DNA from: an uncultured virus (IMG/VR IMGVR_UViG_3300020161_002252)
Lineage: Duplodnaviria > Heunggongvirae > Uroviricota > Caudoviricetes > Herelleviridae
IMG/VR virus record: IMGVR_UViG_3300020161_002252
DNA length: 20,000 nucleotides
Reading direction: 5' to 3' (one strand)
Shown here: positions 1 to 14,421 of the stretch, one piece after another
How positions within the stretch are numbered: the first letter of the stretch is position 1
How the letters are laid out: each line of letters starts with the position of its first letter
Translations under genes and position numbers: made by a program
Notes under the pieces: generated by a model
The model's database searches: none
The model's input: the letters and a program-made list of their open reading frames with translations, nothing else
Told to the model about the DNA's origin: nothing

Positions 1-1007
1 CCTTTCTGGGTTTTCTTTTTTGCTTGTTCCATGAGTAAAGAAGCAATATGTTCTAATTCTTCATTGCTACAATTAGAGAAGTGATCTTTTAACATATCCT
101 TCAAGCTGGATTTTGTGATCATCTTCTTCTTAGTTTCTTTTTGCCCATAAGTCGCACTAGAAAGCTTTTTATCGATACTTTGTTGAACTAATGCACTTAG
201 AGAAGCGTCCGCATCTGGTATCGCTGGTTCTTGGTATCCCATAGATGCATTCATGGATCTAGCAATCAATTCTAAATTTGTATTTGGGTTGACTGGTGCG
301 CTTGTTACCGCAACATTTAGAACCTTAGCTTTTAGTACGCGTTTCTTATTCTGGGGATCTCTCATTTGTACCACACCTTCAATAGAAAACCCAAGATTAC
401 GATTAGCATTAGCCTTCTTAATTGCTACCGCGGTATCATAGCACTCTTTAGCCAAGGGTTTAGCTAGGTACAAAACACCTTCTACGCGGGTTCTATGATC
501 GTCTAGGCGTTCAATCTTAGTAGGATGCCCTAATACCGCTTCGGGACCTGGTCTATGTTCATGATTGAACCATCCGGAACTAAGGAAGTAATCCCAATCA
601 AGCCCGCTTTGATCAATGGTTTCCCCTTCGCGGTCTTGATCATCAGTGGATACAATACCCGCAATGTAGCCAACGCCATCAGCATTGTTATTGCCATTAG
701 GATCATCGCCAGGTTTATCACCCTTTTCAATAAGATCCATAGGAATCCACTTGGCAAAATAAGAACCCTTGTTCAATGCTTCTTCAATATCAGCTTTGAA
801 ATCGTGATCTTCCAACCACTTTTTAAATTCGCTTACGGTGAACTTGTTTTTATCTGCTCGGATGCTTTGAATCTGGGAATCCCCACCATCTTTTAAGCCC
901 AAGATTACACTCAACCCCTCTGGGAAGCCCTTGGGTGTGAATCTTCTAAAATCACTAAATGCGCTAGGGTCTACTTGTCGCGCTGCGTGTTCATTTGCAA
1001 AAGGCAT
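1..1007 (-). CDS. Prohead (capsid maturation) protease, HK97/SPO1-type serine protease, with extra ~75-aa N-terminal domain; 3' end lies beyond the window
   Basis: Hand translation from ATG at 1007 (RBS AGGAG) is open for 335 codons to the edge: MPFANEHAARQVDP...YIAGIVSTDDQDREGETIDQSGLDWDYFLSSGWFNHEH...LGFSIEG...NVAVTSAPVNPNT. The NHEH (His) and GFSIEG (Ser) motifs match phage prohead proteases. Absent from the ORF track. Confidence 0.92.
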   Translation of the reverse strand, partial: MPFANEHAARQVDPSAFSDFRRFTPKGFPEGLSVILGLKDGGDSQIQSIRADKNKFTVSEFKKWLEDHDFKADIEEALNKGSYFAKWIPMDLIEKGDKPGDDPNGNNNADGVGYIAGIVSTDDQDREGETIDQSGLDWDYFLSSGWFNHEHRPGPEAVLGHPTKIERLDDHRTRVEGVLYLAKPLAKECYDTAVAIKKANANRNLGFSIEGVVQMRDPQNKKRVLKAKVLNVAVTSAPVNPNTNLELIARSMNASMGYQEPAIPDADASLSALVQQSIDKKLSSATYGQKETKKKMITKSSLKDMLKDHFSNCSNEELEHIASLLMEQAKKKTQK

Positions 1008-1052
1008 TTATTTTACTCCTGTTTCTTTGGTTACTGGTTACTTATCAAAATA

Positions 1053-2849
1053 TTATACGATCACTTGAGAACCTTGGCCACCATCAACGCCAAAAAATGA
1101 CATTTTAAGCTTTGGATCAGAAGCAATTCTTATTGTATCTCCCCCTGTTGATAGAATACCTTGTAATGCTTCGGTAGATATGAATCTTGAGAATGATAAC
1201 CCATCTTTATTTGTTACTGGGATTTTCCCTAATGAGTAAATATAATTCTTTGGATCTTTAGAATCGCTTTGTTTAATATTTGGTGATAAATCAACAGAGA
1301 TAGTATCGTTTTCAATTTTTAATACTGCAAAAGGGTGTGTTTTTGTTTGTATTTTTAATATGTTTGTTTTCAAGTCTGAAGGAATTTTAAAGGGTTGTTC
1401 TTTTGATACGGTATTATGTAATTCTTTTACGCGCTTCAATTTAAAAGCACTATCTTCTGTTTTAAGTGCGTTAGATGCTATATGTTCTGGAAGAATAGAA
1501 ACACCTTGATCATTTGAAACATCTAATTTATTACCATTTTGTTTTATTGTTACTTTATCTTGAGAAAGAATTTTTGATAGATTTTCTGAGGATAGTTGAA
1601 AAGGCTTTGTATCTGGATCTATTTTAATATTTGAAGGTACTTTTTGTTCCATGTAGCCCTTATTTGTTAAAGTATAGAAAGAACCATCATTATAAAAAAT
1701 ATGAGTTCTAGCAAGATATTCAGCTGTAGGTTCTCTATCCCCTTTTGAATACATGCTGGATTGTTCCGATAAAGTATCAAAAATATTGCTTAATAATTTG
1801 TCATTATTTTTCATTTTAAAAGCATTTTTAGATAGGCTTATTTGTGGATTATTTAGAATATCTTCAAAAATAGTATCTACTTTTTGACTACTAAAATCTT
1901 TAATTTCTTTTTCAATTGTTTCGTTATCTGCCGTATTTTCTCTAATCCTTTTAAAAATAGAGTCCCAAATAACTGGTATTTCTTTAGATTGTCGTGCTTT
2001 TGCTGTTACAATGCTAACAAGATTCTCATATTTATAATGCTTATCAAACAAAATGTTACTTAATGGATGATTCGCAACTTCCTTTATATGCCTATTTTCA
2101 TAATATTTAGCATCATTATAAAAAGGAAAAATACTTTGCATTTGTTTATCTGATAATTCCAGTGTATCTACATTGAAAATATCATCAAATGGGAATCCAT
2201 TTTGTTCGCCAAATGTATATATCTTTTTAAGCCTCATTAATAAGCTATCAATATACCCTGATGATTGTTGAATATCGCGATCAATTTGTTTTTTAACCAA
2301 GGAAACAATTTCTTCTTTAGATTTACCTTCAAAAATACCAGTAGGTTTTGGCGCTTGTGGCGCTTCTGGTTTCTTTTTCAAAGAGTCAAGCTTGTTTACT
2401 TGAGCTTTCAATTTATCAAGAGTAGAATCTTTAACTTTATGCCCTTTTTCTTTCATTTGTTGGAAAGTGGCTAATTGCTTCTTTGCTCGTTCATGTGATC
2501 GTTCTATGCTGGTAGCATGTTCTTTGTGGATTCTATTTTGAAACTCAAGTTTAGATAGTGTTTCTTTTTGTCCTTTTTTATCCCCATCATCGTATTCAAT
2601 TGTAAGTTTATCACCATCAACGGATTTAATATGCGCATGGTACTTATTATCACCTTCACCAAATGAAAAAGAAGCATCCTTCACAAGTTCAGACTCGTGA
2701 CCTAACCCTTTACCGTGTCCTGCTTGTTCTTGGTAGTAATATTTATACTTTGTTTTACCTGTTTTTGTTCCCCCAATTGGTACACGTCTTACATATTTAT
2801 GTGTTCTTGCCTTGAGTAGATCAAGGATCACTTTGTAAAATGAAAACAT
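1053..2849 (-). CDS. Putative internal head/cargo protein A (598 aa): shared N-terminal module plus unique C-terminus with possible sliding-clamp-like fold
   Basis: RBS AGGAAAATAACA-ATG; first ~157 aa are ~88% identical to 4433-5728; located between MuF and the protease. Confidence 0.7.
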   Translation of the reverse strand: MFSFYKVILDLLKARTHKYVRRVPIGGTKTGKTKYKYYYQEQAGHGKGLGHESELVKDASFSFGEGDNKYHAHIKSVDGDKLTIEYDDGDKKGQKETLSKLEFQNRIHKEHATSIERSHERAKKQLATFQQMKEKGHKVKDSTLDKLKAQVNKLDSLKKKPEAPQAPKPTGIFEGKSKEEIVSLVKKQIDRDIQQSSGYIDSLLMRLKKIYTFGEQNGFPFDDIFNVDTLELSDKQMQSIFPFYNDAKYYENRHIKEVANHPLSNILFDKHYKYENLVSIVTAKARQSKEIPVIWDSIFKRIRENTADNETIEKEIKDFSSQKVDTIFEDILNNPQISLSKNAFKMKNNDKLLSNIFDTLSEQSSMYSKGDREPTAEYLARTHIFYNDGSFYTLTNKGYMEQKVPSNIKIDPDTKPFQLSSENLSKILSQDKVTIKQNGNKLDVSNDQGVSILPEHIASNALKTEDSAFKLKRVKELHNTVSKEQPFKIPSDLKTNILKIQTKTHPFAVLKIENDTISVDLSPNIKQSDSKDPKNYIYSLGKIPVTNKDGLSFSRFISTEALQGILSTGGDTIRIASDPKLKMSFFGVDGGQGSQVIV

Positions 2850-2861
2850 TGTTATTTTCCT
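2380..2861. repeat. Direct repeat copy 1 (~480 bp, includes RBS and 5' coding region)
   Basis: Ungapped match to 5259-5740 (offset 2879), with mostly synonymous or conservative substitutions. Confidence 0.95.
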
Positions 2862-2895
2862 TTCTTTGTTTTCTTAGTTATACTATTTTTATTAT

Positions 2896-4356
2896 TTAAT
2901 TTTTAGTTTTTAAATGATCCGCCCATAAATCCGCGTCCGCCGTTCTTCTAGTCTTTCCACCCGTCAAAAATGAATAAACGCGCGCTCTTGCCCATGCTAT
3001 TTGTGTTGCTCCTGGTCTATGCCCGCTTGTTGCCCAAGCTTCAGCCCCGCGCTTGTGTACTTCGCTTATAATGCGCTTTGAAACGCCTGTTAATTGAGAA
3101 GCTACTTTGATAAATTCTTGGGTTGTATTTCCCTTAGTTTTTTCTCTTACTGCACTGGCTAAACTGGTTCTTGAATACTTGGAAGGTTTTGTTTTGGTAT
3201 CATCACCCACCAAAGGTTTATACTTATCCTTAGCTTTGATCTTGCCTTGTTTGCGTTGTTCTATTTGTTTTGTTCTCTTCTCTTTTTCATCTGGTTCTAG
3301 TCCTCTTAGATACTTGCTAGGAATTGATTTTGTGATTGTTTCCTTGAGCATTCGCCCTTGTTTTGTAACGATAAAACCCCGTGGAATAGGTAGCGTATCG
3401 CATCTACAATTAGGATGCACTGGGAATAAGGTTGGCAATATGTTTTCTTTGGATCGCCCAACATTTACACCATTAGCAATTAATTGATCTGGTTCAAATA
3501 GCACTAGGTTTTCACCGTCTACAAATAACGATAAACAAATATCACAAGCGCTAGTATTTGGGAATCTGGCAACCAATGAATCTTGATCTATTGCATCCAA
3601 TAAGCGCCCTTCGTTATATGCTGCTTGTAACTCGGTTCTTGCGATTCTATCCCAATTTCTAGAATAGTCCTTAGTGATATCCGCCAATCTGGAAGCTAAG
3701 GCCTTGTAATCTCTCCCATCTACAATTTCATTCGCTGTTTCTTGCTTGATTGTATCTAGGATAAATTGCCGTTGTTGTTCATTAACTTCTTCTGTAATCT
3801 CAGTCCCTTCCCAACCTTCAGCAATTGCACTATTTAAATCTTCCCCTACTTGGTTACCTAAACCCCTCGCATAAATACCCGCTCTTTGTAATGCGGAACT
3901 ATACGCTTGTTTCTCTGAATCACCCATCCAAGAAGGCAAATTACGCGGGGGTTGTAATGGTTCTCCGTAAATATGTTCATAGCTTGGCGCTGGTGTTTCC
4001 ATAGTGGAATTTTGACCGTCTATCTCTGTTTGTGATGGTTCTAGTGATACAATACTTTTTAAATGTTCTTTGATCACTGGCTCCCATTCACTCAATCCCC
4101 AATCTCTAGCTTCTTTGATTTGTGTATTGTTCATCTCATTCAGCACTTGCCCCATCATAAACAAAAAAGCATAAGGATCTAAACCCGCTATTTGTAAACC
4201 CTTTGTATCTAGTTTCAATGTTCCATTTTGCGCTAAATCCTTAATGCGTTCTGGACTTAACCCGCTATTTTGTATCCCAAATAACTCAATCAAAAATAAA
4301 TCATGTTGATCTTGTACGCTTTGCAACGCTTGATCTTGTAACTCTTGTTTTTTCAT
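2896..4356 (-). CDS. MuF/SPP1 gp7-like minor head protein with C-terminal DUF5824-like extension
   Basis: RIARTELQAAYNEG...CDIC...PVHPNCRC is the MuF signature; C-terminal RGAEAWATSGHRPGATQIAWARARVYSFLTGGKTRRTADADLW; RBS AGGAG. Confidence 0.85.
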   Translation of the reverse strand: MKKQELQDQALQSVQDQHDLFLIELFGIQNSGLSPERIKDLAQNGTLKLDTKGLQIAGLDPYAFLFMMGQVLNEMNNTQIKEARDWGLSEWEPVIKEHLKSIVSLEPSQTEIDGQNSTMETPAPSYEHIYGEPLQPPRNLPSWMGDSEKQAYSSALQRAGIYARGLGNQVGEDLNSAIAEGWEGTEITEEVNEQQRQFILDTIKQETANEIVDGRDYKALASRLADITKDYSRNWDRIARTELQAAYNEGRLLDAIDQDSLVARFPNTSACDICLSLFVDGENLVLFEPDQLIANGVNVGRSKENILPTLFPVHPNCRCDTLPIPRGFIVTKQGRMLKETITKSIPSKYLRGLEPDEKEKRTKQIEQRKQGKIKAKDKYKPLVGDDTKTKPSKYSRTSLASAVREKTKGNTTQEFIKVASQLTGVSKRIISEVHKRGAEAWATSGHRPGATQIAWARARVYSFLTGGKTRRTADADLWADHLKTKN

Positions 4357-4375
4357 ACTATGCTCCTATTTTGCA

Positions 4376-4387
4376 TAGTATATCATA
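4376..4387 (-). promoter_or_regulatory. Possible extended -10 promoter element upstream of the MuF-like gene
   Basis: Minus strand reads TGATATACT (TGnTATACT) ~20 nt upstream of the ATG; no clear -35. Confidence 0.3.
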
Positions 4388-4432
4388 TATTAGTTAGTTC
4401 CGAATAACCTAAGATATTTATCACTTTGATTC

Positions 4433-5728
4433 TTATTGTCTTGAAACTGGTGCTTTGTACTTGTAATATGATAAACCTCGGCTACCTTCCTTCTTTCGGT
4501 CCCATCTGAATCCTAATCGCCAAAGTTTATCTTTATCTTTGAAATCACCTTCAACATATAAATATAAATTATCTGGATTCCTGCCTTCCATATCATCATC
4601 ATCAATCTCTGTTCCTACGCTACCATCTTCAAAAATATACGAATCGTAACCTTGATATCTTGAATTGTTATAGCGTTGAATGTAATCGTGTTGTGACTCA
4701 GTTAATTGTTTTGGCTTAGATTCTATGTTTTCATCTTGTGTAAATGTATCTTTTAAAAATTGTTTTGCCTTCTCAGTTCCAAGCTTCTGGATAAAATAGA
4801 ATGGGATTTGATATTGTAGCCCGCTTCCATGCTTATCAAAATTCAAAACGCCCATAAACTTATCCATTCCTATCGATTGTAACGCGGGTTTAATATGATT
4901 TTTCCAAGTATCCTCATCATACTTCTTTCTTGTGATCACCGCATACATCCCTTTCTCACTTGGATTATTTATTTGTTTATCGATATACTTATAAGCATTC
5001 ATTCCAATAGAATCGGAAGGTAATGTATTTAATTCATCTTTGTATTTATTGTAGTCCCCATCTTCCGAAGATTCGTTGACCTCGTTTACAATATCTTCAA
5101 TTTCTGGCGATCCCATAAAAGGGGCACTTATGAATCTTAGCCCCGCTTTATCTTTATCCCCATGACTCAAATCTCTAATAGTTTTAGCAAGAGAACCAAG
5201 CTGCTCAATGGATCTATGATATTGTTCAATATATTCTTCTTGTGCTGGAGTCTTAGCTAAAGAGTTAAGCTTCTCTACTTGAGCTTTCAATTTATCAAGA
5301 GTAGAATCTTTAACTTTTGCACCTGTGGTTTTCATCTTTTCAAAAGTAGCAAGTTGTTTCTTTGCTTTTTCATGAGCTTGTTTGATACTGGTAGCATGTT
5401 CTTTGTGGATTCTATTTTGAAACTCGGTTTTGCTTAGTGTTTCTTTTTGTCCTTTTTTATCCCCATCATCGTACTCAATTGTAAGTTTATCACCGTCAAC
5501 AGATTTAATGTGCGCATGGTATTTATTTTCACCTTCACCAAAAGCAAAAGAAGCATCCTTGACAAGTTCAGACTCATGCCCTAATCCTTTGCCGTGTCCT
5601 GCTTGCTCCTGGTAATAATATTTATATTTTGTACTGCCTGTATGAGTTGCCCCAATTGGTACGCGCCTTACATACTTATGAGTTCTTGCTTTGATCAAAT
5701 CAAGGATTACTTTGTAAAATGAAAACAT
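4433..5728 (-). CDS. Putative internal head/cargo protein B (431 aa): shared N-terminal module plus unique C-terminus ending in a DUF5710-like motif
   Basis: Same RBS and N-terminus as 1053-2849; C-terminal LYLYVEGDFKDKDKLWRLGFRWDRKK. Confidence 0.7.
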   Translation of the reverse strand: MFSFYKVILDLIKARTHKYVRRVPIGATHTGSTKYKYYYQEQAGHGKGLGHESELVKDASFAFGEGENKYHAHIKSVDGDKLTIEYDDGDKKGQKETLSKTEFQNRIHKEHATSIKQAHEKAKKQLATFEKMKTTGAKVKDSTLDKLKAQVEKLNSLAKTPAQEEYIEQYHRSIEQLGSLAKTIRDLSHGDKDKAGLRFISAPFMGSPEIEDIVNEVNESSEDGDYNKYKDELNTLPSDSIGMNAYKYIDKQINNPSEKGMYAVITRKKYDEDTWKNHIKPALQSIGMDKFMGVLNFDKHGSGLQYQIPFYFIQKLGTEKAKQFLKDTFTQDENIESKPKQLTESQHDYIQRYNNSRYQGYDSYIFEDGSVGTEIDDDDMEGRNPDNLYLYVEGDFKDKDKLWRLGFRWDRKKEGSRGLSYYKYKAPVSRQ

Positions 5729-5740
5729 TGTTATTTTCCT
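5259..5740. repeat. Direct repeat copy 2
   Basis: Ungapped match to 2380-2861. Confidence 0.95.
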
Positions 5741-5996
5741 ATCTTGGTTTAGCCTTGTTTAAAACAGTCTTTGAAATCTCATTTAATCGATCAGCATATA
5801 AGCTATTCATCTTATCCGCCAATTCATCAATCACCTTAAATTCTCCGCCCCTATGCTGCTTGTGATCTGCTTTACATAGTTGATCAGCGTAAACGGAAGC
5901 GCTAATATGTTCCGCGTGTTGAGCGATATGCTTGGCTAGTGTATCTAAGTTGAATCTCTTCAATTCTTCATTACTAAGTTCAATATTAATTTTCAT
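5739..5996 (-). CDS. Hypothetical head-module protein (85 aa, MKINIELS...)
   Basis: ATG at 5996 has RBS GAGGA and overlaps the end of the upstream gene; a better start than the ORF-track start at 6017. Confidence 0.75.
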   Translation of the reverse strand: MKINIELSNEELKRFNLDTLAKHIAQHAEHISASVYADQLCKADHKQHRGGEFKVIDELADKMNSLYADRLNEISKTVLNKAKPR

Positions 5997-6759
5997 TCTT
6001 TTGTTCCTCTCTTTCAAACTGGTTGATCATCTTTTTAGCCCAAGTAAAACCTGCATCACCACCCCAAAGAAGCCATGAGATATTAGCTTTGCTGGATTTG
6101 TCTTTGTGAAACTTTTTGTATGCACTATGCCTTGAGAAAAAGGAATACATGCGCTTGATGGTCTGCTTGGATACTCTACCTTGAATCAAATTACTTGCGC
6201 GTTGAACACCGCTACCAATTCCCAATTTACCGGCTTGTTTAGAATCTAAACCACCGTGACCATATTCGCGCCGTAATTCTAGGCCTCTTTGCGCTGCATC
6301 TCTTACACCCTGTGGAACTTCGTAACTATCTCCCCCTTTGGTTAACTTGGTTCTTCGATATATGATATCAACCATCAAGGGAACTAAGCCATATTGAATC
6401 AAATCTTGAATATGCTCAGTTAAATCTTGTTCAGTACTATGCAAAACATGTTCTAGTAATAAGTGCATATTGGCGCTTCTTGTACAATCACGATACACAC
6501 GGCTGGCGAACATCTGAATTACTGGTTTTCTTATGATTCTTTGCTTCATTCTGGCGCGTTCTTCATCGCCCACTTGAGTCAATTGTATATCCATTTGATC
6601 GCAAAGAAAATCGTATTCATTCATGATTGCATCATTGACTATATCAAACACTTGTTTTTCACTTAATATCTTTGGATGATCTGCAATCACTTCTTTTACT
6701 TCGTCAAGTCTGGGGTGCGGGTGCATTAGTGACTTGATTATCTCTTGAAACTTGATCAT
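5986..6759 (-). CDS. Two-domain head-associated protein (257 aa) with C-terminal RMYSFFSRH...ISWLLWGGDAG domain
   Basis: ATG at 6759 preceded by GAGGAAAAGAACA; C-terminal motifs resemble a small domain often seen in phage head-module genes (recalled, not searched). Confidence 0.75.
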   Translation of the reverse strand: MIKFQEIIKSLMHPHPRLDEVKEVIADHPKILSEKQVFDIVNDAIMNEYDFLCDQMDIQLTQVGDEERARMKQRIIRKPVIQMFASRVYRDCTRSANMHLLLEHVLHSTEQDLTEHIQDLIQYGLVPLMVDIIYRRTKLTKGGDSYEVPQGVRDAAQRGLELRREYGHGGLDSKQAGKLGIGSGVQRASNLIQGRVSKQTIKRMYSFFSRHSAYKKFHKDKSSKANISWLLWGGDAGFTWAKKMINQFEREEQKNEN

Positions 6760-6806
6760 TGTTCTTTTCCTCATGAAATGGGTTAAGAACATATTACTAT
6801 ATTTTA

Positions 6807-7316
6807 CTATCTATTTGTGTTTTTAGTTGCCTTGAGGGACTTTCTAATCATTTCAGCATACAAGCCAAAAGAGATACTTTTTACTACTTTTTTCTCTGAA
6901 TAGAATGTTTTTGCATTTGAAATAAAATACCAATCTATAAAAGTTTTGATAAAGGCTTCTAATTCAATAGCATCATCATAATCTAGTGTTTGAATCTGGC
7001 TTAGGAAATACCCATCATTTTGTAGTGATACTTCTTGATTTATTTTGTCACTTACAAACTCGATTAGATCCTCATTAAGATAGTTTTTCTTGACATATTG
7101 AAGCGCTTCTATCTCTTTACTTGGCTTATTCTCATGCAAAGAATACATTGCTATTAGTTCATCACAACGATTAACCAAGTATGAAGAACCCTTTAAACAA
7201 TCAAGTATGATATCTTTAATTTGTTCTTTGGAAATCTTGGTTGGCTTGGATGCTAGAATCATTTTAAGCCTATTATATTTAGATGCGTACGCATTTGATT
7301 TTCTTAATCTGGTCAT
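6807..7316 (-). CDS. Hypothetical protein (169 aa)
   Basis: ORF co-oriented with the head module; no RBS upstream because the foreign block begins just before the ATG. Confidence 0.7.
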   Translation of the reverse strand: MTRLRKSNAYASKYNRLKMILASKPTKISKEQIKDIILDCLKGSSYLVNRCDELIAMYSLHENKPSKEIEALQYVKKNYLNEDLIEFVSDKINQEVSLQNDGYFLSQIQTLDYDDAIELEAFIKTFIDWYFISNAKTFYSEKKVVKSISFGLYAEMIRKSLKATKNTNR

Positions 7317-7319
7317 TTT

Positions 7320-7985
7320 AATAATAATGTTTCACATGCTGTCCGTATGGGTGTTATCTCTCACAGTGGCAAAAAGTACAAAATGACACAATTAGGTAAA
7401 GATATCTTAGCTAATAATTCGCTCTATCCATCTATTTCTAAAGAACAGTTATTGAAGTACTATAGGGTTAACAAGGATGATGGCTCAATACTTTTCCCTT
7501 ATAGGGCAATACTCAAAATCTTTCTTGAAGTCGATTATGTTACAAGATTTGAATTTCTGTATTGCATATATTCTTTATGTGATACTAGTGAAGCATCTAT
7601 TCAGGATGCTATAGAAAGAATAAATTATCTTCGCGCAACATATCCAAATATTAATATTTTAGGTGAAAAAAACAAAGAAAAAGTTCTTGATATTATCAAC
7701 ACTAAGTATGATGTTCAATTTGGTTTCAAAGATATTTGGACCAGCAAAACCACAACATACAACCAGTTCAATTACTTTAAAAAGCATTTATGGGAGTTTA
7801 ATAACATCTTTATCACTACTGAGGAGAAAACAGATAAAGAAAAAATTCGCATTAATCCAGGCGCTCAATCATCTATCAAAGAGTTACTTGATTTGACTAG
7901 TACCATCGAAGTTTTTGCTGCCAGCAAAAATATGAACAAATTAGATGAACTATATGGAAAACGTATTTCAACCATAAACTTATAA
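7320..7985 (+). pseudogene. 5'-truncated probable type IIS restriction endonuclease (winged-helix DNA-recognition portion)
   Basis: Frame is open upstream of ATG 7347 (NNNVSHAVRMGVISHSGKKYKMTQLGKDIL, a wHTH wing pattern) with no RBS; LFPYRAILKIFLEVDYVTRFEF resembles AlwI/BpuJI-like recognition domains; convergent with two MTases; no catalytic motif evident. Confidence 0.5.
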
Positions 7986-8043
7986 TCTTCAAGTTATTAC
8001 AACACATAAAAGGTTCATTAAATTCAAAGTAGAGAGCCTCTTT

Positions 8044-9411
8044 TTATACTTTTTCTAAAACTACAATACTCTCTCGAAGCGAATTCTTTAAGTATGGATA
8101 TAGCTGTATCTGTTGTCCTGACGTTTTGGCAATTCTACAAACAATAATCTCCTTAACTCTAAAATCATAATTTTCTGCAATAGCTCCAAGAAATAAATCT
8201 GTAGGAATAATTCTTCCAAGGTATGCACTCTGATCGACAACAATATAACATTTTTTTCCAGAAATTAAAACACTTGCACTTTCAGCAATTACCTTTTCCA
8301 TGTCAGTAAAGTAACCCTTAATCATTTTAGGTACCTTTCTTGTTCTAGCATCTCTTTTCCCTGTTCTAGATTCTTTTTCAGGAATAGCTGATTCTATTTC
8401 TTCTGACATCCAATTAATAAAATCTCTTATCTCATTTCTTTCATCGGATCTACCAACAAAAGATTCTACTGCCTGTCGTCTATAAGTACTTATACCTTTC
8501 ATATCTGAAGCGTAATCTGCAAGTATTACTTCCATCTTATATGATTCAAAATAGTCAAAAGAATTAGCATATGGAGGTGAATACATTATCGCACCAAGAG
8601 TTTTATCAATGATATTCGAATACTTATTAACTGTTTCCGATAATCGCATTGCATCTCCACAATCAATCGCTGAAACTAAATTTGCAGGTATTCTAGACCT
8701 TTCAATATCTACTATCATTTCTTTGATTTTCTTTAAATAAAATGCTTCTACATTATCAACCCTAGTAGCCACTGTTTTTAAACCATTCCCGTCTCTCTTT
8801 CTATCAGAGACTTCTTCTATAATACAAATATAAGCACAAATCATTAACTCATATATTTTTGTACCAAGTAAATCCTTATTTGTATCTATAACTTGTCTTA
8901 TCGAAACAAGTCGTTCAAAATTATGTTCATTAAAAAACTTTTGGACTTCCTGATATTTATCTTTATATTCATCAAACATATTAGTTTGTTTCATACTTGT
9001 AATAATTTCAGGCAATACAGTTTTAATATGATTTATTTCTTCATTTGTATAACTCCTACATTTAACTTCTGAAATAAAAGCTGACATAGGATTTATATCT
9101 ATTCCTATTCCCGAAAAACCATTTAAAGCAGCCTCTACTACTGTTGTTCCACTTCCACAAAAAGGGTCTAATACATATTCATCTTGTGCCATTCCACATC
9201 TATGAATTAGCTCTTTTATCAAAGTATGAGAAAATCCTTCCCTATATTTAAACCAGCCATGATATTGTATATCCTTATTTTTAGAAAAATTTACAAGTTG
9301 ACTAAAAAAATCGGCTTCATTTCTTATGTTAAATCTGTTCTCTAATCCATAAATGAATGCCTTTAGATTTTTATTCGCATAAATGTTAAATTTATCAATT
9401 GCATTTATCAA
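8044..9411 (-). CDS. Amino-DNA methyltransferase, alpha class, probably N4-cytosine
   Basis: HGWFKYREGFS (motif X), VLDPFCGSGTT (motif I) before SPPY (motif IV); TTG start with RBS GAAGGTG; overlaps upstream MTase by 17 nt. Confidence 0.9.
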   Translation of the reverse strand: MINAIDKFNIYANKNLKAFIYGLENRFNIRNEADFFSQLVNFSKNKDIQYHGWFKYREGFSHTLIKELIHRCGMAQDEYVLDPFCGSGTTVVEAALNGFSGIGIDINPMSAFISEVKCRSYTNEEINHIKTVLPEIITSMKQTNMFDEYKDKYQEVQKFFNEHNFERLVSIRQVIDTNKDLLGTKIYELMICAYICIIEEVSDRKRDGNGLKTVATRVDNVEAFYLKKIKEMIVDIERSRIPANLVSAIDCGDAMRLSETVNKYSNIIDKTLGAIMYSPPYANSFDYFESYKMEVILADYASDMKGISTYRRQAVESFVGRSDERNEIRDFINWMSEEIESAIPEKESRTGKRDARTRKVPKMIKGYFTDMEKVIAESASVLISGKKCYIVVDQSAYLGRIIPTDLFLGAIAENYDFRVKEIIVCRIAKTSGQQIQLYPYLKNSLRESIVVLEKV

Positions 9412-11272
9412 TTTTTACACCTTCTTTCATTATCCATTTGTTTTCTTTTATTTCAAGATTCTGGCTCAATAAATTATCAATAAAGGTCTTTGATAACTCA
9501 TCGATTTTCTCAACTTCATCTTCTTTATTCTGGCATACAAACTTCATTATAATATTAATTAAACTACTATAGATCTTTTCATATAATTCGGTTGTCGTAT
9601 ATTCTTCTTTAATTTGATACATGTTTTTTAGACATTCGTTTACTTTGTTTTTTATCATGTGTTCAAAATTTCCTACCGGAATATCCATCTCTGGAATAGG
9701 GCCTTTTCTAAAGGAATATATAAAATCGCCGTGAATATTGCCAGAATATCTTAAATGCGCTGTATTTTTGTATTCAGAAATGAAATCTTGATAAATCACA
9801 CCATCTTCAGGTAAATAAAATCCTGCATTTAAGACAGCTTTTAACAATTGTACCCAAACATTAATATTTTTATTGTTAAATGTAAATACTAAGAATCCAC
9901 CAGGTTTCAAAACTCTACAAGCCTCGGAATAAACTTCTCTTAACATATTACCATAAAAATCTACATCCTTAGCACCTTCAAAGCACGATTTTCTATTAGC
10001 AACAGCCTCCTCATCATGATAAATGAATTTATCAAGCCCCTTGTATTCCTTATACCATATATTCCAGAATGAAGATAATTCTCCATATTGAACGTTACTA
10101 CCATATGGAGGATCTGTAATAACAGCATCTACACTTGCGTCTGGAATCGGTAAATTAGATGAACTTTGAGTTAATATCAAATAATCTTTTCCATATAGCA
10201 ATTCATCATAACTCGAAGCCTTCATTTTTTTAGAAGACAATGTTTTGTTCGTATACTCAAGGCCTTTAATAATTGCTTCTATTCTATCCTTAAGTTTAAC
10301 AAGTATATTACATTCAACATATTCATTTGGTAACCAATATGCATGTTTATCCATACAAGTAGGATTTCCATTCTCCCAATTCTCAGTTACCCTAGACATT
10401 TTACTTGTATATCTCAATGATGAACTGAATGCAAAATATAATAAATCTCTTTCCTTTGAATCCGGTAGTGACAATATTTTATTAAAAATCATGGTGTTAA
10501 TATAATAATTTTTATCTGAAAACAAATCTGAGAAATTGTATACACCTTTTTGTGGTAAACAATCCTCATACCATCTATCCCAGTTACTAGGTATTGGAAA
10601 ATCAACCGATACTACGCCTTTAAGTATTTCAAAAGTTCCTGTATTGGAAACAATATTCTTTTTTTCTTTTTCATCAAATTCATAAATGCCTTTTTCACCA
10701 TTAGAATTAAAATATTTTATCCTTAGTGGAATACTCTTATAGGGTATGCACTTTGTTCTTGTTACACCTGTTTTTGTGCGATTGTTACTCTGGCATATAG
10801 GATTTAAACATCTATATTTTCCATTTGATACTTTATTTTTTTCGGTAAGTCGAATAATATTTCCACATTCCGCACATTTAACTTCATATACCCATTCCAT
10901 CCATTCTTGTTCGACAGATTTTCCATTTATTTCATATTTATATAAATGTGCAAAGTCTCGTTCACATTCACTAAGAAATGAATGATAATATTCTTTTAGT
11001 AACTTGATATCAACTTGTTGTATTTGCATCTCGGTGATAAATGTAGCAAGTGGATTAATATCAACGCCTACAACTTTTCTATCAAGAGCTAATCCCTCAA
11101 ATACTGTAACTCCGCCTCCACAGAAACAGTCTAGGACTATATCGCCTTTTTTCGTATAATGTTCTACTAATTTTCTAAAAACATTGTAAGGGCGTCTTGC
11201 AAAATATTTATGCATTTGATATTGTGCAGTATGGCTTTGTGCACTAATAGATTCTTTTATTGGTTCGATCAT
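9395..11272 (-). CDS. N6-adenine DNA methyltransferase with Zn ribbon (COG1743-like, alpha order)
   Basis: MHKYFARRP, VLDCFCGGGVT (motif I), CAEC...CLNPIC Zn ribbon, ITDPPYGSNVQYGELS (motif IV), RVLKPGGFLVFTF. Confidence 0.9.
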   Translation of the reverse strand: MIEPIKESISAQSHTAQYQMHKYFARRPYNVFRKLVEHYTKKGDIVLDCFCGGGVTVFEGLALDRKVVGVDINPLATFITEMQIQQVDIKLLKEYYHSFLSECERDFAHLYKYEINGKSVEQEWMEWVYEVKCAECGNIIRLTEKNKVSNGKYRCLNPICQSNNRTKTGVTRTKCIPYKSIPLRIKYFNSNGEKGIYEFDEKEKKNIVSNTGTFEILKGVVSVDFPIPSNWDRWYEDCLPQKGVYNFSDLFSDKNYYINTMIFNKILSLPDSKERDLLYFAFSSSLRYTSKMSRVTENWENGNPTCMDKHAYWLPNEYVECNILVKLKDRIEAIIKGLEYTNKTLSSKKMKASSYDELLYGKDYLILTQSSSNLPIPDASVDAVITDPPYGSNVQYGELSSFWNIWYKEYKGLDKFIYHDEEAVANRKSCFEGAKDVDFYGNMLREVYSEACRVLKPGGFLVFTFNNKNINVWVQLLKAVLNAGFYLPEDGVIYQDFISEYKNTAHLRYSGNIHGDFIYSFRKGPIPEMDIPVGNFEHMIKNKVNECLKNMYQIKEEYTTTELYEKIYSSLINIIMKFVCQNKEDEVEKIDELSKTFIDNLLSQNLEIKENKWIMKEGVKIDKCN

Positions 11273-11440
11273 CTTGTTGTCCTTTGGTTAACTTAGATTA
11301 TGGGGTTTTTAAACATTTTTAATTGAAAGGGATGGATTTTTTATTTATTTTAAGCTAGTTGAAGTGGCAACACTATTGTACAAGATCAAATCATGATACT
11401 TATTTTAGAACTAAAAAGGTAATTATATTCTAGGATTCAA

Positions 11441-13057
11441 TTAAATTTCAATGCTAAATTTATGCTTAGTTGATTTCCCTATCTCTTCTTTGTTTCCTTC
11501 TGTTTCTTGTTCTTGTTGTCCTTGTTGCTCTGGTTCATTGTCTTCTTGCTCTTCATCTTGATCATTGTATTCATCATCTCCTTGATCCCCTTGATCTTGT
11601 TGTCCTTGGTCCTGTTGCGCTTGTTGTGCCATGCTTAAGCTAGTGATATATGCTTGACTTAGTACAATATCCCCGCCTTCAATGGGTTTTAAGTCGTACT
11701 TGGCGCGTATTTCATTGACCGTCATGTAATTGCTTACGCGTTGAATATCACCCGCTAAAACATCTTTCTCAGTATCCAAATCAAGACCCACGAATCTCAG
11801 TTCGTATTTATCTGAGATCTTGGATAGAATGAACATATTGATCCAATTTTGTATACTCCTAAGCAAAGGATACAACCCCTTATCTTTTGAAGCTTGGATT
11901 CTTGCCCCTGGTCCCTGTTGAGTTAAAGCGACTGTTTGTCCTTCTGTACCAAAAACAAACCCAAGTTCAGCGGGATCTATTTGAAACAACGCACAAGCTA
12001 ATTTAGTTAAATACCCTATCCAAGTGGTATAGCCCATCTCTTCCGCGGTCCCACCAATATTAACGCTCTGTAGATCCTCTTTTAGTGTAGCATCTGGATC
12101 TAATTGAACAATAGGCGTTCTCTTTGCTTGTGCTGCCCCGCTTAACATCGCGTATAAATCCCGCTTGAAATTTCTAAATGTTTGGGGTGTCATTTTACTC
12201 TTGAGAACTAAAATACTTGGTGCATGAATGCCATTTACAAAATTACTAGCATTATATGTTTCCGCGTTAACTAAATGGGTTACAACCCTTACAAGCTCCT
12301 CAAGCTCTGGGAATCCATACCCTTTAGCGAAATAGGTGGTTCTTGGCCTTCGGATGCAAAAAGCTAGTTGATCATGTTCAAAATCAGCTACTTTCTTGCC
12401 ATTGATAATCTGGATATATCCAGAAGCTTCCCAATCGCGTCTACCTTCCTTCTTTTCCTCTTCAGTCAAAGCACGGCGCCTAATGGTTGATGCATCCACG
12501 GGCACAAAACCAATAATATCACCCCTTCTATTTTTCATGATCTCAAAACACGCTTGATCATAAGTCAAACTATCGCGTAGGATCATTTTAATAAAAGCTT
12601 CAAAATTGAAAGCGCCGCCAAATCGATAGCCTTCGCCACAGGTTTCAAGCCACCTTGTTAAATCCTGGATTTCTTTTGACTCTTCCGCGCTTGGCTTCTT
12701 GCTTTGGTCTTTTAGTCGGATGATATAACCGGCTTTAAACTGGTCTTCTTGGGGTACGCAAAATTCAGCTATTTGATTGATTCTGGTTTGCAAGATTGCG
12801 CTTATCACGGGTACACGGGAAATGAATTGTAGGATATCATAATCAACGCCAAAAGTTCCCTCGTGCACATTGTCGCGATAAGTATCGGAAGCTGAATAGA
12901 TCGCTACATTTGTAGGGTCGATATCAAATGCTACTGGTTCAACCTTGCCCCCTTCATGCGCAATTTTCAAAGCTTTTTGAATCAAATTTTCACTTTCATC
13001 AGATAATTCCTCTAATGTTTCTTGCATTGCACTTTGATTTCTTCTTATTTGATACAT
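11441..13057 (-). CDS. Phage portal protein (SPO1/Twort-like), with acidic Q/D/E-rich C-terminal tail
   Basis: FIKMILRDSLTYDQACFE...VPVDASTIR...GYGFPELE...CALFQIDPAELGF...TVNEIRAKYDLKPIEGGDIVL; RBS AAGGTG. Confidence 0.93.
   Translation of the reverse strand: MYQIRRNQSAMQETLEELSDESENLIQKALKIAHEGGKVEPVAFDIDPTNVAIYSASDTYRDNVHEGTFGVDYDILQFISRVPVISAILQTRINQIAEFCVPQEDQFKAGYIIRLKDQSKKPSAEESKEIQDLTRWLETCGEGYRFGGAFNFEAFIKMILRDSLTYDQACFEIMKNRRGDIIGFVPVDASTIRRRALTEEEKKEGRRDWEASGYIQIINGKKVADFEHDQLAFCIRRPRTTYFAKGYGFPELEELVRVVTHLVNAETYNASNFVNGIHAPSILVLKSKMTPQTFRNFKRDLYAMLSGAAQAKRTPIVQLDPDATLKEDLQSVNIGGTAEEMGYTTWIGYLTKLACALFQIDPAELGFVFGTEGQTVALTQQGPGARIQASKDKGLYPLLRSIQNWINMFILSKISDKYELRFVGLDLDTEKDVLAGDIQRVSNYMTVNEIRAKYDLKPIEGGDIVLSQAYITSLSMAQQAQQDQGQQDQGDQGDDEYNDQDEEQEDNEPEQQGQQEQETEGNKEEIGKSTKHKFSIEI
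11490..11630 (-). repeat. Low-complexity coding repeat (QQDQG/DQG, E/Q-rich) in portal tail
   Basis: AQQAQQDQGQQDQGDQGDDEYNDQDEEQEDNEPEQQGQQEQE. Confidence 0.8.
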
Positions 13058-13150
13058 AGTTCACCTTATTTTCTATGGTTTATTAGGTACATAATAAGCT
13101 TTTTAACATTGTTTAACAATTGACAAAATCAATAGATTTGCGGGGTCAAT

Positions 13151-13266: not shown

Positions 13267-13608
13267 ATGTCTTTACAAAACGCTTTATCAGATGCACAAA
13301 TTGAACGCATGGAAACCGCACTTGATGAAATCTTGGCTAATTCTGGTCGTAAATTTGCAAGTCAAATCTCTTACACTGTTACAAGATTCGGAACTATCTA
13401 TTTAGAAGCTACAATCAACGATCACACCTTTGAAAGAAGAATTGAATGGTTTGTTAAGTCTGAAGATCAAATTGTATACAATGTTTACACATCAACAGGC
13501 AAAATGTATTCATGGGGTGAACCTTGTGATCTTGAAGGTGTGTTGTCCTTGGCTGGTATGGATCAAGAGATTGTTGATGGCTTTGAAGCAGATATCCTCG
13601 GACTCTAA
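13267..13608 (+). CDS. Hypothetical acidic early protein (113 aa)
   Basis: RBS AGGA; downstream of the sigma70 promoter. Confidence 0.85.
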   Translation: MSLQNALSDAQIERMETALDEILANSGRKFASQISYTVTRFGTIYLEATINDHTFERRIEWFVKSEDQIVYNVYTSTGKMYSWGEPCDLEGVLSLAGMDQEIVDGFEADILGL

Positions 13609-13640: not shown

Positions 13641-13913
13641 ATGAATCATAATACAACACATAACTTCTTCTTAAAGATTTGTGATATACTTTTAGATGGT
13701 GATTGCCATGCAGTTCCAAGAGATGAAGCACTTGAGATTTTAACAAAAAGTATGCAAGATGAATCAACCAGTAAAAAGTTAAACAAATTCATCAATGATG
13801 CAGCACTAGCACAAACTGAAACCCTTCAAGTAAGTTTCTGTTTTAATAACAAAGTCAATTTTCTTTGTGCTGTGCCAAAAAGTCAAAAACTAGATTCAAG
13901 ATACGCTTTATAA
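13641..13913 (+). CDS. Hypothetical early protein (90 aa)
   Basis: RBS TAAGGA; followed by an intrinsic terminator. Confidence 0.8.
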   Translation: MNHNTTHNFFLKICDILLDGDCHAVPRDEALEILTKSMQDESTSKKLNKFINDAALAQTETLQVSFCFNNKVNFLCAVPKSQKLDSRYAL

Positions 13914-13944
13914 GATCAAGAATCAATAAATAGCGCGTTTGCTT

Positions 13945-13971
13945 AGGCTGTCTACCAAGGCAGCCTTTTTT
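13945..13971 (+). terminator. Rho-independent terminator
   Basis: Stem AGGCTGTCT / AGGCAGCCT (one G-U pair), loop ACCA, followed by a T-tract. Confidence 0.85.
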
Positions 13972-14002
13972 ATTTTGTGCTTCTGGCAACGCGTTAAATT
14001 GG

Positions 14003-14096
14003 TGTATTGGGTGCTAAGGTGCTTCGCGTTCGATCAATCACTCTTCCCAAAAAACAACATACATAAACATACACAAGGATGATCGCACCCAATACA
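14003..14096 (-). ncRNA. Candidate structured small RNA (or 19-aa sORF mRNA) closed by a perfect 12-bp inverted repeat
   Basis: TGTATTGGGTGC (14003-14014) pairs with GCACCCAATACA (14085-14096); minus-strand promoter immediately upstream. Confidence 0.4.
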
Positions 14097-14102
14097 TGAA
14101 TC

Positions 14103-14130
14103 AATATATCTCTTTATTTCACTGGGTCAA
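14103..14130 (-). promoter_or_regulatory. Possible sigma70 promoter for the sRNA candidate
   Basis: Minus strand TTGACC-N16-TATATT; predicted +1 falls at the start of the inverted repeat. Confidence 0.45.
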
Positions 14131-14133
14131 TCT

Positions 14134-14421
14134 TTATTTCTTTTTCTTAGCAGCTTCTTTGTTGGCGGTGGCAAGTATCGCATAACCCGCTAAATCTAAA
14201 TAGGGTGATTCCCCATAGGGGTCTTTGTTTTGAGCGATCCTTGAAATCTTATCTAGCATACGAACAATTACATGAATATCCGGATAGCTAGTTACTGGTA
14301 TTCCATTAGGATAAAGTAACAAAAGCATTTTTGTAGTCTTATCAAACGCGTTCCCATAAGCTAAATTTTTCTTCTCTAGCTCCTGGGCTACACCCTTAGC
14401 AATCTCTTTAAACTGTGTCAT
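14134..14421 (-). CDS. Nmad1/DUF1599-like all-alpha nucleotide-modification-associated protein
   Basis: KKNLAYGNAF...VRMLDKISRI...YLDLAGYAIL motif pattern. Confidence 0.7.
   Translation of the reverse strand: MTQFKEIAKGVAQELEKKNLAYGNAFDKTTKMLLLLYPNGIPVTSYPDIHVIVRMLDKISRIAQNKDPYGESPYLDLAGYAILATANKEAAKKKK

Follow-up and report, generated by a model that had tools for sequence, protein, structure and literature searches.

A constant N-terminal module with variable tails in the head gene block of uncultured tailed phages: a candidate address for capsid cargo

Two genes in the window, the 20,000-nucleotide stretch of viral DNA analysed here, encode proteins (A and B) that begin with a common N-terminal module. 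Across its homologs, this module is constant and under purifying selection; a flexible linker connects it to dozens of tails that are unrelated to one another, and the same module heads successive payload blocks within giant polyvalent proteins. Within complete genomes, every copy of the module (one to five per genome) sits in the head-assembly gene block. We consider it probable (roughly 60%) that the module serves as a shared ‘address’ for head-internal cargo proteins, which form a polymorphic family across a large clade of uncultured tailed phages. From gene context and from partner domains that occur in virion proteins elsewhere, we infer that the module proteins are packaged in the capsid and injected.

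The two paralogues and their shared module

Alignment of A and B by BLASTP recovered 141 identities over residues 1–161 (E 1e-96) and no significant similarity beyond residue 161. The original prediction had counted 18 differences by hand within the first 157 residues, and the same count was read from this alignment; the unrelated C-termini that it placed after a Pro/Ala/Lys linker were likewise recovered, as tails of 441 and 274 aa between which BLASTP found nothing significant. Identity drops sharply at approximately nucleotide 485, within the linkers KKKPEAPQAPKP and AKTPAQEE, and a direct repeat (2366–2665 and 5245–5544) exhibits 85% DNA identity. The modules of A and B differ at 67 of 471 nucleotides, comprising 38.5 synonymous and 28.5 non-synonymous changes (Nei-Gojobori), with a dS of 0.57, a dN of 0.08, and a dN/dS of 0.14. 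The ratio and the number of synonymous changes substantiate the purifying selection that had been proposed for the module, and the dS of 0.57 identifies A and B as old paralogues rather than the products of a recent duplication. The ribosome-binding regions of the two genes, described as identical, are nearly but not fully so across the 18–19 nucleotides before the ATG, which include a GGAAAA Shine-Dalgarno sequence. When compared to a related group of loci (L007), identity was about 60% for the module, 67% for the portal protein, 64% for the protease, and 53% for MuF, and the module diverges at about the same pace as these three proteins.

Table 1. Coordinates of the features in the window that are discussed in the text.
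Feature	Coordinates	Strand	Remarks
Prohead (head maturation) protease	3..1007	-	phrog_1028, E 3e-49; continues beyond window edge
Paralogue A	1053..2849	-	ORF, 598 aa; module at residues 8-137 (in-house profile) and 441-aa orphan tail
Module of A	2379..2849	-	codons 1-157; 88% identity to module of B
Ribosome-binding region of A	2850..2868	-	ungapped comparison of 60 nt upstream
MuF-type minor head protein, C-terminal DUF5824	2896..4356	-	
Paralogue B	4433..5728	-	ORF, 431 aa; module at residues 8-137 (in-house profile) and 274-aa tail
Tail (candidate payload) of B	4433..5257	-	
Module of B	5258..5728	-	codons 1-157
Proposed minimal tag of B	5600..5728	-	codons 1-43: amphipathic helix and HKYVRRVP...KYKYYY hairpin
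Ribosome-binding region of B	5729..5747	-	near-match to that of A; ungapped comparison of 60 nt upstream
Two small conserved head-region ORFs, 268 aa and 92 aa	5739..6792	-	between portal and B
Portal protein	11441..13057	-	PF04860, E 2e-12; phrog_12, E 4e-42

The predicted gene order, with A and B flanking MuF between the portal and prohead protease genes, was recovered (Table 1), but the portal gene is set apart by a 4.6-kb island (6805–11440) that comprises two DNA methyltransferases and one plus-strand ORF and is missing from the nearest relative. The MuF-type ORF matched DUF5824 (PF19141, E 1.4e-18) and phrog_115 ‘minor head protein’ (E 7e-15), and it matched Phage_Mu_F (PF04233) with an E of 2.5e-5 and 25.4 bits, under the cut-off of 29.6 bits. 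The C-terminus of the 268-aa ORF matches phrog_2859 (E 4e-14), and homologs of this ORF and of the 92-aa ORF come after the portal gene in many related loci, as judged from in-house iterated profiles, which drift. The protease gene lies 46 nucleotides downstream of A and MuF lies 77 nucleotides downstream of B, which leaves no space for an immunity ORF. A megablast search with positions 1–13100 of the window returned no match among GenBank phages.

AlphaFold2 models of the B module predict a helix (residues 4–16), a hairpin (19–27 and 33–39), a small barrel (60–99), and helices (100–158), with a pLDDT of 86 for residues 1–160 and of 79 for residues 1–112. What had been described as a beta-rich segment is more exactly this small barrel, and the supposed coiled coil is instead predicted to be a helical hairpin (112–134 and 141–158). 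The hairpin is basic and aromatic (HKYxRRxP...YxYxY), whereas the barrel is His-rich and, based on weak signals, SH3/Tudor-like. Conserved residues of the module are K13, H17, K18, Y19, R22, P24, Y37, Y39, H71, H73, D87, and H111, among which the near-invariant polar residues are H17, H71, H73, D87, H111, K13, and R22. The conserved polar set (four His, Asp, Lys, Arg, and three Tyr) would also be expected of a ligand-binding, metal-binding, or catalytic domain. One metal site shared by H17 and the barrel histidines was considered and set aside; proteins that carry only the first ~43 residues of the module keep H17 and have no barrel histidines, and H17 therefore cannot depend on those histidines alone.

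A profile-based sequence search of solved structures with the module identified no relative, the sole row being a low-complexity match to eS25 (E 0.54), and Foldseek comparison of the 160-aa model with the PDB returned nothing below an E of 0.1. In a wide VIA fold search, the list for the 160-aa model was swamped by the helical hairpin. The best Z scores for the 112-aa model were 5.1 (an immunity protein), 5.0 (Tudor), and 4.6–4.8 (the TraI translocation-signal domain), with rmsd values of 3.3–3.8 over 57–77 aligned residues for the top two; Z scores of about 5 were set aside because values so low are common among unrelated chains. The best Foldseek E across searches was 0.08–0.11 (0.08 for the 112-aa model), and all fold matches are at noise level. 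SH3, Tudor, PWWP, and KOW rows were recurrent in the Foldseek lists, sub-threshold matches to Agenet and RimP-SH3 were detected, and phmmer matched module residues 64–131 to a Tudor-repeat protein (P0098) with an E of 1.2e-14 summed over 12 repeats. A BFVD fold search identified one probable member of the family, a DdrB-like protein of an uncultured phage (E 5.5e-4).

Distribution of the module, its tails, and its gene neighbourhood

The module matches 374 cluster representatives at E ≤ 1e-3, of which the best 150 were examined, and an in-house profile of the module matches 176 of the 178 proteins in the working set. Of these 176 proteins, 147 carry one N-terminal copy, 11 one internal copy, and 15 two to four copies; the module is internal or repeated in 26. 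Relatives of 1100–3600 aa hold two to four modules along with several domains of differing activity. A Pfam family was present in 12 of 14 giants, and ddrB-ParB, LPD1, InPase, methylase, or SNF2/Sno was present in 11 of the 14, with Tudor repeats in P0098. In one giant (P0042), modules at positions 22, 314, 1390, and 2341 each precede a block, including a methylase (1197–1290) and an SNF2 domain (1853–2233). Partner domains of the polyvalent type were also identified in 14 of 85 further proteins and in three of the first 40. A module that is not strictly N-terminal is a counterpoint to the address reading; an InPase or 2H domain lies upstream of the module in five proteins (P0091, P0092, P0096, P0124, and P0127) and, together with the internal modules, this excludes a purely terminal signal. 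In a tag-only form (six loci, four distinct proteins), just the first ~43 residues precede other tails.

No family match to the module was found in Pfam, PHROGs, or NCBIfam. Searches of 50,697 phage records by tblastn with the B module or with a second module protein (P0086) returned no match, and a pattern-limited scan of bacterial and archaeal genomes yielded three confirmed loci, all in metagenome-assembled genomes (MAGs). No cultured relative was therefore identified among those records. The module family seems to be confined to uncultured phages, which would explain its absence from the three family databases.

The linkage of homologs to head genes that had been anticipated was borne out. 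A module gene lies beside a homolog of the portal, MuF, or protease of the window in 61 of 65 viral loci based on plain BLASTP, and each of five long records (completeness at least 97% for three of these) has all of its two to five matches confined to a single stretch of ≤ 11 kb. The iterated in-house profiles are prone to drift, with ‘Protease’ catching a capsid protein ORF and ‘orf92’ catching MuF-type ORFs, and the plain BLASTP count is therefore the trustworthy one. Head-gene homologs were not found in four loci (L029, L047, L056, and L061), the first of which has a baseplate-J gene downstream. PF04860 or PF19141 adjoins the module gene in 19 of 26 loci scanned, and two to four module ORFs were identified in 24 of the 65 loci. 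In one locus (L009), the protease is followed by a 254-aa ORF without a family and then by the major capsid protein (phrog_752), while in another (L005) a third module gene lies between the protease and an acidic scaffold-like ORF. Complex prediction for the module and this 235-aa scaffold-like protein returned a score of 0.00 and a mark of 0.32, which is evidence neither way.

The C-termini of module proteins are not constant, in agreement with the prediction of swappable tails. At least 41 unrelated tail groups were identified among 137 module proteins, and where two modules were at least 90% identical, the tails were unrelated in 81 of 106 pairs; in one pair (P0073 and P0074) the modules are 100% identical. 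The proposed exchange of payloads through the repeat is exemplified by a locus of a closely related phage (L006) with MuF and protease that are 99% and 98.5% identical, respectively, to those of the window at the amino acid level and with flanks at about 95–97% nucleotide identity. Here, a 631-aa ddrB-ParB gene replaces A in its slot, with the left breakpoint within the module. Assembly of metagenomes can create chimeras at the repeated module (e.g., P0040 and L004), and some apparent exchanges may be artefacts.

The tails of A and B match no Pfam, PHROG, or NCBIfam family above threshold. A sequence search identified no relative of tail A among solved structures; its only relatives were the P0006 cluster (99% identical), from a search of 5.8 billion clusters, and P0047, from BLASTP. 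The Protein Atlas gave a weak, sub-threshold lead from tail A to a sliding-clamp-like cluster (score 0.86) and no match for tail B. No solved relative of tail B was detected with a single sequence or a profile, rows being returned only in helical, low-complexity parts, and its relatives were found only within the module family. Several longer tails (P0002, P0019, P0020, and P0028) end in a counterpart of the last ~170 aa of tail B (about 40% identity), and tail B is therefore itself mosaic. More generally, no domain could be recognised in 71 of 85 tails or in 37 of the first 40, so that for A and B themselves the label ‘effector’ is assumed.

Proposed role of the module and alternative explanations

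We propose that, during prohead assembly, the module would dock its payload onto a putative conserved head component, such that payloads would be encapsidated and would exit with the DNA at infection. The minimal docking tag would be the first ~43 residues, comprising the helix and the basic/aromatic hairpin, which the His-rich barrel and helical hairpin may stabilise or extend. Payloads might then function at an early stage, one example being antirestriction of the kind provided by P1 DdrB, which was found in P1 heads by LC-MS/MS (PMC9024508, Table 1). Similarly, gp47 of phi24B, an LPD1-bearing polyvalent protein, is reported in virions based on proteomics (bioRxiv 10.64898/2026.04.10.717836). 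New payloads would be acquired through recombination events in which one breakpoint falls within the conserved module and the second in the intergenic region that follows the gene.

A broader version of this proposal is possible but doubtful, namely that the module acts as a universal loading handle in a previously unrecognised phage protein-delivery system, with giants as concatenated tag-payload units and with slot-wise swapping of cassettes. Any protein behind the 43-residue tag or the 157-aa domain would then be recruited to proheads and injected, giants would be anchored or processed at each module, and phage populations would exchange cassettes at set positions around MuF and the protease as part of an arms race. 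If true, this would show, for one large clade, how giant polyvalent proteins are arranged within the capsid and loaded into it (cf. phi24B gp47).

It is unlikely that the module is instead a working part of the effector (i.e., binding nucleic acid, ligand, or metal, or enzymatic) that acts in the host, for example by holding payloads on the incoming DNA. The basic and aromatic hairpin, the near-invariant polar residues, and the module repeats of giants, which would allow multivalent binding, are consistent with such a part, as is the SH3/Tudor-like barrel, which is indicated by weak signals only (P0098, VIA, Foldseek, and sub-threshold Agenet and RimP-SH3). However, the fold matches are all at noise level (best Z of 5.1, Foldseek E never < 0.08), and an effector part explains neither the location of every copy per genome in the head block nor the forms with helix and hairpin alone. 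Moreover, packaging and DNA binding are mutually compatible.

A role as a processing unit that marks or catalyses cuts to free payload blocks from polyproteins is quite improbable. Internal modules do lie at payload-block boundaries in giants, conserved His and Asp residues are present, and a Pro/Ala/Lys-rich linker follows the module. Further, Iyer et al. (PMC5512222) ascribe a processing role in polyvalent proteins to zincin peptidases, and Pfam reported no peptidase family in the 14 giants scanned. However, the module is unlike any peptidase in sequence or fold, it is at the extreme N-terminus in 147 of 176 proteins, with nothing upstream to free, and a dedicated prohead protease gene adjoins. 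Lastly, although the genes are placed within the head gene block, most tails have no recognisable enzymatic domain, and decoration proteins typically also pair a constant N-domain with variable C-domains, it is very unlikely that module proteins are non-delivered structural or assembly parts of the head (decoration, head-fibre, or expelled scaffold-like factors), since the recognisable tails are DNA- or nucleotide-directed enzymes (ddrB-ParB, methylase, SNF2/Sno helicase, InPase, and 2H) that would be senseless on the capsid exterior or in a discarded scaffold.

The address reading bears on a process, capsid addressing of diverse cargo, that is understood only for T4 and partly for P1, where no shared signal was found; phage-packaged effectors for antirestriction and host take-over are already known. 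The module is a strongly conserved, readily recognised, address-like domain that is common to all paralogues of a phage and present in hundreds of protein clusters, whose sizes span 77-aa fragments and giants of 3600 aa. It provides a sequence handle for spotting candidate injected effectors in metagenomes, most tails having no recognisable domain, and the family offers a testable model of how polyvalent proteins are built and loaded. The module is also a possible cargo-loading tag for engineered capsids.

Comparison with known systems

In the sections of Iyer et al. (2017; PMC5512222) consulted here, polyvalent proteins are described as polypeptides with 2–15 domains of disparate biochemical activity that are predicted to be packaged and injected and that, like module proteins, are encoded beside portal/packaging genes. 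Domains of polyvalent proteins (PF18763 ddrB-ParB, PF18796 LPD1, PF18823 InPase, the methylase-helicase dyad, and 2H) share polypeptides with the module, and solo versions beside phage structural genes occur among module proteins as they do for several LPDs in those sections. A and B each show a single recognisable unit, the module, in front of one tail that matches no family, in contrast to the multi-activity giants. A recurring ‘header’ domain before each payload block was identified here, whereas the consulted sections of PMC5512222 contain no such description. Scanning of 139 of the 176 module proteins with Pfam LPD models detected no LPD at the module, and LPD1 was always outside it. LPD36 was rejected as the identity of the module; PMC5512222 describes it, in the part consulted, as a four-helix domain N-terminal to a methylase.

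MuF polymorphic toxins, as described in the consulted part of Jamet et al. (2017; PMC5576092), likewise combine a constant head-associated N-domain with C-terminal payloads that vary, and they too are encoded within the head module. However, the constant domain of A and B is not MuF, with no match to PF04233 or SPP1 gp7 in either protein, and MuF is encoded by a separate gene (2896–4356). No toxin families were found in the tails of A and B, and no toxin-immunity pair was recognised. While the MuF toxins are those of temperate phages, the module phages are uncultured and the pattern-limited scan recovered almost no copies from bacterial genomes (three loci, all MAGs).

As with T4 internal proteins and P1 DarB (PMC9024508, in part), N-terminal information would suffice to target unrelated proteins to the head interior. 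The capsid-targeting signal of DarB is reported there to lie within the N-terminal 30 residues (more than nine and at most 30 aa), which is close in size to the tag-only form (~43 aa). The P1 Dar antirestriction system (DdrB and DarB) has parallels here, in that module proteins can carry ddrB-ParB tails, slot A of L006 being one instance, and methylase-helicase blocks are present within module-bearing giants. The tails of A and B, by contrast, are unrelated to Dar proteins. Unlike the T4 and P1 signals, the module tag is strongly conserved, common to all paralogues, usually within a folded domain of ~157 aa, and can be internal or repeated. The parallel that the original prediction drew with a cleavable leader of the T4 type was not supported, since the module is a folded unit of 130–157 aa (minimally ~43 aa) that occurs internally or two to four times in giants. 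The module is best read as a variation on the theme of polyvalent proteins and capsid-targeting signals rather than a leader of that type.

A constant N-terminal domain joined to variable tails

Genes A and B of the window share a constant N-terminal domain of ~157 residues that is under selection (the module) and is followed by variable, exchanged tails, or payloads; it occurs only in the head-assembly block. We hold this descriptive account of domain, tails, and context with very high confidence. That the module is a packaging address for the payloads we consider probable (roughly 0.6).

Residues 1-161 of A and B were identical at 141 of 161 positions, and the proteins showed no relation beyond them. 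The original prediction had counted 18 differences by hand within the first 157 residues, followed by an abrupt switch at a Pro/Ala/Lys linker; alignment reproduced the count, and nucleotide identity drops off at ~nt 485, inside that linker. The 18-19 nt preceding both ATGs were almost identical. The DNA of A and B differed at 67 of 471 nt, with a dS of 0.57 and a dN/dS of 0.14, which argues that the genes are old paralogues held alike by selection rather than a fresh duplication.

AlphaFold2 models built from family alignments were called confident for residues 1-160 (pLDDT 86, pTM 0.74), with a pLDDT of 79 for residues 1-112 (predicted elements are in the table). Across 86 module instances with mutual identity < 70%, residues K13, H17, K18, Y19, R22, P24, R36, Y37, Y39, G46, G58, F61, H71, H73, G79, D87, G93, and H111 were each kept in 87-99%. 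The module matched no family above threshold in Pfam, PHROG, or NCBIfam, and sequence searches of solved structures identified no relative. Fold searches returned noise-level rows only (top VIA Z 5.1; top Foldseek E 0.08), among which SH3, Tudor, Agenet, PWWP, and KOW barrels were over-represented, and phmmer matched query residues 64-131 to the Tudor-repeat protein P0098. An SH3/Tudor-like class for the barrel is thus suggested but unproven. P0098 (2503 aa) is built of numerous repeats of the Tudor/Agenet type (Pfam Tudor_3, Tudor_5, and Agenet), matches the barrel part of the module in 12 stretches, and provides the sole sequence-level clue to the fold class. It is conceivable, if unlikely, that this His-rich barrel binds a ligand or nucleic acid or is enzymatic, a role that could coexist with that of a packaging address.

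Architectures and payloads across the family

A phmmer search of 1.84 billion representative proteins with residues 1-160 of B returned 374 proteins at E<=1e-3, of which 169 passed 1e-10. The best 150 of these 374, with 40 from a word-indexed search, gave a family set of 178 proteins in all, of which an in-house profile of 129 positions matched 176; the two misses were a possible chimera (P0040) and P0098. Most proteins (147 of 176) carried a single N-terminal copy that started at or before residue 35 and extended to profile position >=115, and 11 of the 176 carried a single internal copy starting at residue 123-563.

Between two and four copies were present in 15 of the 176 proteins, giants of 1110-3608 aa in which the first copy was usually N-terminal and each copy precedes a successive payload block. 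In the giant P0042, for example, modules begin at residues 22, 314, 1390, and 2341; residues 1197-1290 match a methylase and residues 1853-2233 an SNF2 helicase. The module might instead serve as a processing unit of polyproteins, a reading that we regard as improbable. A third, tag-only form, in which the helix and HKYIRRxP...YxYxY hairpin (~43 aa) are followed by an unrelated tail and the barrel is missing, was encoded directly after the portal in six loci (four distinct proteins).

Tails of >=100 aa were present in 137 of the 147 single-copy N-terminal proteins, and single-linkage BLASTP clustering (E<1e-4) of these tails yielded 41 clusters. Among 106 protein pairs with modules >=90% identical, 81 had unrelated tails, a count based on cluster representatives, such that near-identical full-length pairs are under-counted; the modules of one pair, P0073 and P0074, were 100% identical. 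Tail A was related to one other cluster, P0006 (99% identical; search of 5.8 billion clusters), and, by BLASTP, to P0047, while the last ~170 aa of tail B recur at the C-terminal ends of longer tails. Neither tail had a family match or a solved relative.

Pfam scans covered 139 members of the 176-protein family. The ddrB-ParB domain was present in 3 of the first 40 proteins. Of 85 further proteins, 14 had domains (LPD1 in 8, ddrB-ParB in 3, InPase in 2, and 2H, methylase, and Sno/SNF2 helicase in 1 each) and 71 matched no Pfam family. Among 14 giants, 12 had a Pfam family, comprising polyvalent-type domains in 11 and the Tudor repeats of P0098; giant P0071 had none. These payload domains are reported as signature domains of polyvalent proteins, multi-domain proteins of phages and conjugative elements that are predicted to be packaged and injected (Iyer et al., 2017; PMC5512222), and they share single polypeptides with the module.

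Genomic context and cassette exchange

The head genes of the window form a minus-strand series. The original prediction placed A and B between the portal and the prohead protease; the gene order bears this out, but a 4.6-kb island intervenes between the portal and the conserved 268-aa ORF and separates the portal from the remaining head genes. The nearest relative (L003/G001), although 97-98% identical to the window on both flanks, lacks this island. Methylases or a resolvase also lie directly upstream of the portal in L007, L008, L012, L013, L018, L022, and L025.

Coordinates of features in the window, in related loci (L-numbers), and in the module
Feature	Location	Strand	Annotation
Portal	11441-13057	-	PF04860; phrog_12
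DNA methyltransferases (N6/N4)	9395-11272 and 8044-9411		in island
ORF, 212 aa	7347-7985	+	in island; no family
ORF, 169 aa	within 6805-11440		in island
Island	6805-11440
Two small conserved ORFs	5986-6792 and 5739-6017	-
Gene B, 431 aa	4433-5728	-
MuF-type minor head protein	2896-4356	-	DUF5824 E 1.4e-18; phrog_115; Phage_Mu_F 25.4 bits (below 29.6-bit cut-off)
Gene A, 598 aa	1053-2849	-
Prohead protease	3-1007	-	phrog_1028 E 3e-49; cut off by window end
Third module gene, 456 aa	L005 687-2057		just past window's left edge, between protease and scaffold-like ORF; module 89% identical to B
Scaffold-like ORF	L005 2175-2879		acidic, Met-rich
Capsid protein	L005 2898-4316
Tag-only genes	L007 2946-3782; L011 1787-2623; L018 3517-4527; L066 2084-3094; L020 1949-2908; L013 6913-7914
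Amphipathic helix	residues 4-16		predicted; lower confidence (block means 57-61)
Long beta-hairpin	residues 19-27 and 33-39		predicted; bears HKYVRRVP...KYKYYY
Small barrel	strands 60-63, 70-78, 81-86, 95-99		predicted
Helix	residues 100-110		predicted
Helical hairpin	residues 112-134 and 141-158		predicted

The phrog_1028 match of the protease covers residues 86-296, and residues 1-85 lie outside it without a family. The C-terminal ~105 aa of the 268-aa ORF (5986-6792) match phrog_2859. Its in-house profile further matched DUF5824-bearing MuF ORFs at other loci and the N-terminal 170 aa of ORFs L053 3259-5172 and L054 6594-7672. The latter two continue into a module (residues 178-295) and would represent a fusion of the 268-aa-ORF domain with the module. 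By translation alone, ORFs 14773-15267 and 18325-19149 resemble a dCMP/cytidine deaminase and a serine recombinase.

Scanning IMG/VR with the pattern HKY[IV][RK]R[VI]P, which misses relatives without the exact motif, recovered 152 stretches; confirmation succeeded for 114, and the best 80, in 65 loci, were kept. In 24 of these loci, two to four module ORFs were present, invariably sharing a strand and frequently arranged in tandem. Plain BLASTP identified a homolog of the window portal, MuF protein, or protease in 61 of 65 loci (all but L029, L047, L056, and L061); iterated in-house profiles gave 62 of 65 with drift, and the BLASTP count is therefore the one we trust. A Pfam scan of 118 neighboring ORFs from 26 loci (near-duplicate loci were among those left out) matched portal PF04860 (13 loci), DUF5824 (12 loci), or both in 19. 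In L009, the module genes are followed by the protease (phrog_1028), a 254-aa ORF, and the major capsid protein (phrog_752). The head block of G003, a complete record, contains portal, a tag-only gene, MuF, module genes, protease, a scaffold-like ORF, and capsid protein. In five long records, three of them estimated to be >=97% complete, all two to five module matches fell within one stretch of <=11 kb. Such a position among head genes would also suit structural proteins that are not delivered, a reading that the recognizable polyvalent-type payloads leave most improbable.

L005 overlaps the left end of the window at 97% nucleotide identity and encodes a third module gene; therefore, the phage of the window probably has at least three module paralogues. 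Relative to the L007 group, identity was ~60% for the module, 67% for the portal, 64% for the protease, and 53% for MuF, such that module divergence roughly keeps pace with that of the head proteins. Cultured material contains almost no members of the family: tblastn with two members as queries gave no match among 50,697 phage records, and only three module loci, all in MAGs, were confirmed in representative prokaryote genomes.

The suggestion that payloads could be exchanged by recombination is borne out by L006, in which a cassette has been replaced. Its MuF and protease are 99% and 98.5% identical to those of the window at the amino acid level, and between them lies a 631-aa gene whose tail is of the ddrB-ParB type and whose module is only 70% identical to that of A. 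Nucleotide identity extends from MuF through module codon ~112 and restarts 13 nt past the stop codon of A, placing the breakpoints within the module and in the 3' intergenic region.

Mis-assembly at the repeated module may account for some of the apparent rearrangements. P0040 joins a homolog of ORF 13267-13608 (+) to the end of the module and tail of B, and in L004 (2538-4425) a B-like gene after the protease runs straight into sequence that matches window positions 13911-14798; these junctions could be genuine rearrangements or chimeras created during assembly.

Packaging and comparison with known systems

As a packaging address, the module would let its payload dock on a conserved component of the prohead, and the docked payload would be encapsidated and exit with the DNA. 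Analogy with characterized systems supports this reading. DdrB of P1 is reported as a head protein by LC-MS/MS, and residues 1-30 of P1 DarB are reported to suffice for loading a reporter (PMC9024508). The polyvalent protein gp47 of phi24B, which has LPD1, is described as abundant in virions (bioRxiv 10.64898/2026.04.10.717836), and MuF-borne polymorphic toxins are described with comparable logic (PMC5576092).

A constant head-associated N-terminal domain, swappable payloads, and delivery with DNA all have precedents in polyvalent proteins, MuF toxins, and T4/P1 targeting signals. What appears to be new is the module domain itself, which on sequence grounds is unmatched in Pfam, PHROGs, and NCBIfam and may equal one of the LPD1-40 domains of Iyer et al. 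that lie outside Pfam. Two other aspects also appear to be new: the three forms that the domain takes (the tag alone, one header, or several headers in giants) and the multi-slot cassettes that surround MuF and protease across this large clade of uncultured phages. Keyword searches of the literature, which cannot find a motif, returned no description of the module. For P1, the Dar N-termini are reported to lack a consensus (PMC9024508). Unlike the T4 and P1 signals, the module is common to all paralogues and strongly conserved, is predicted to be folded, and may be internal and repeated.
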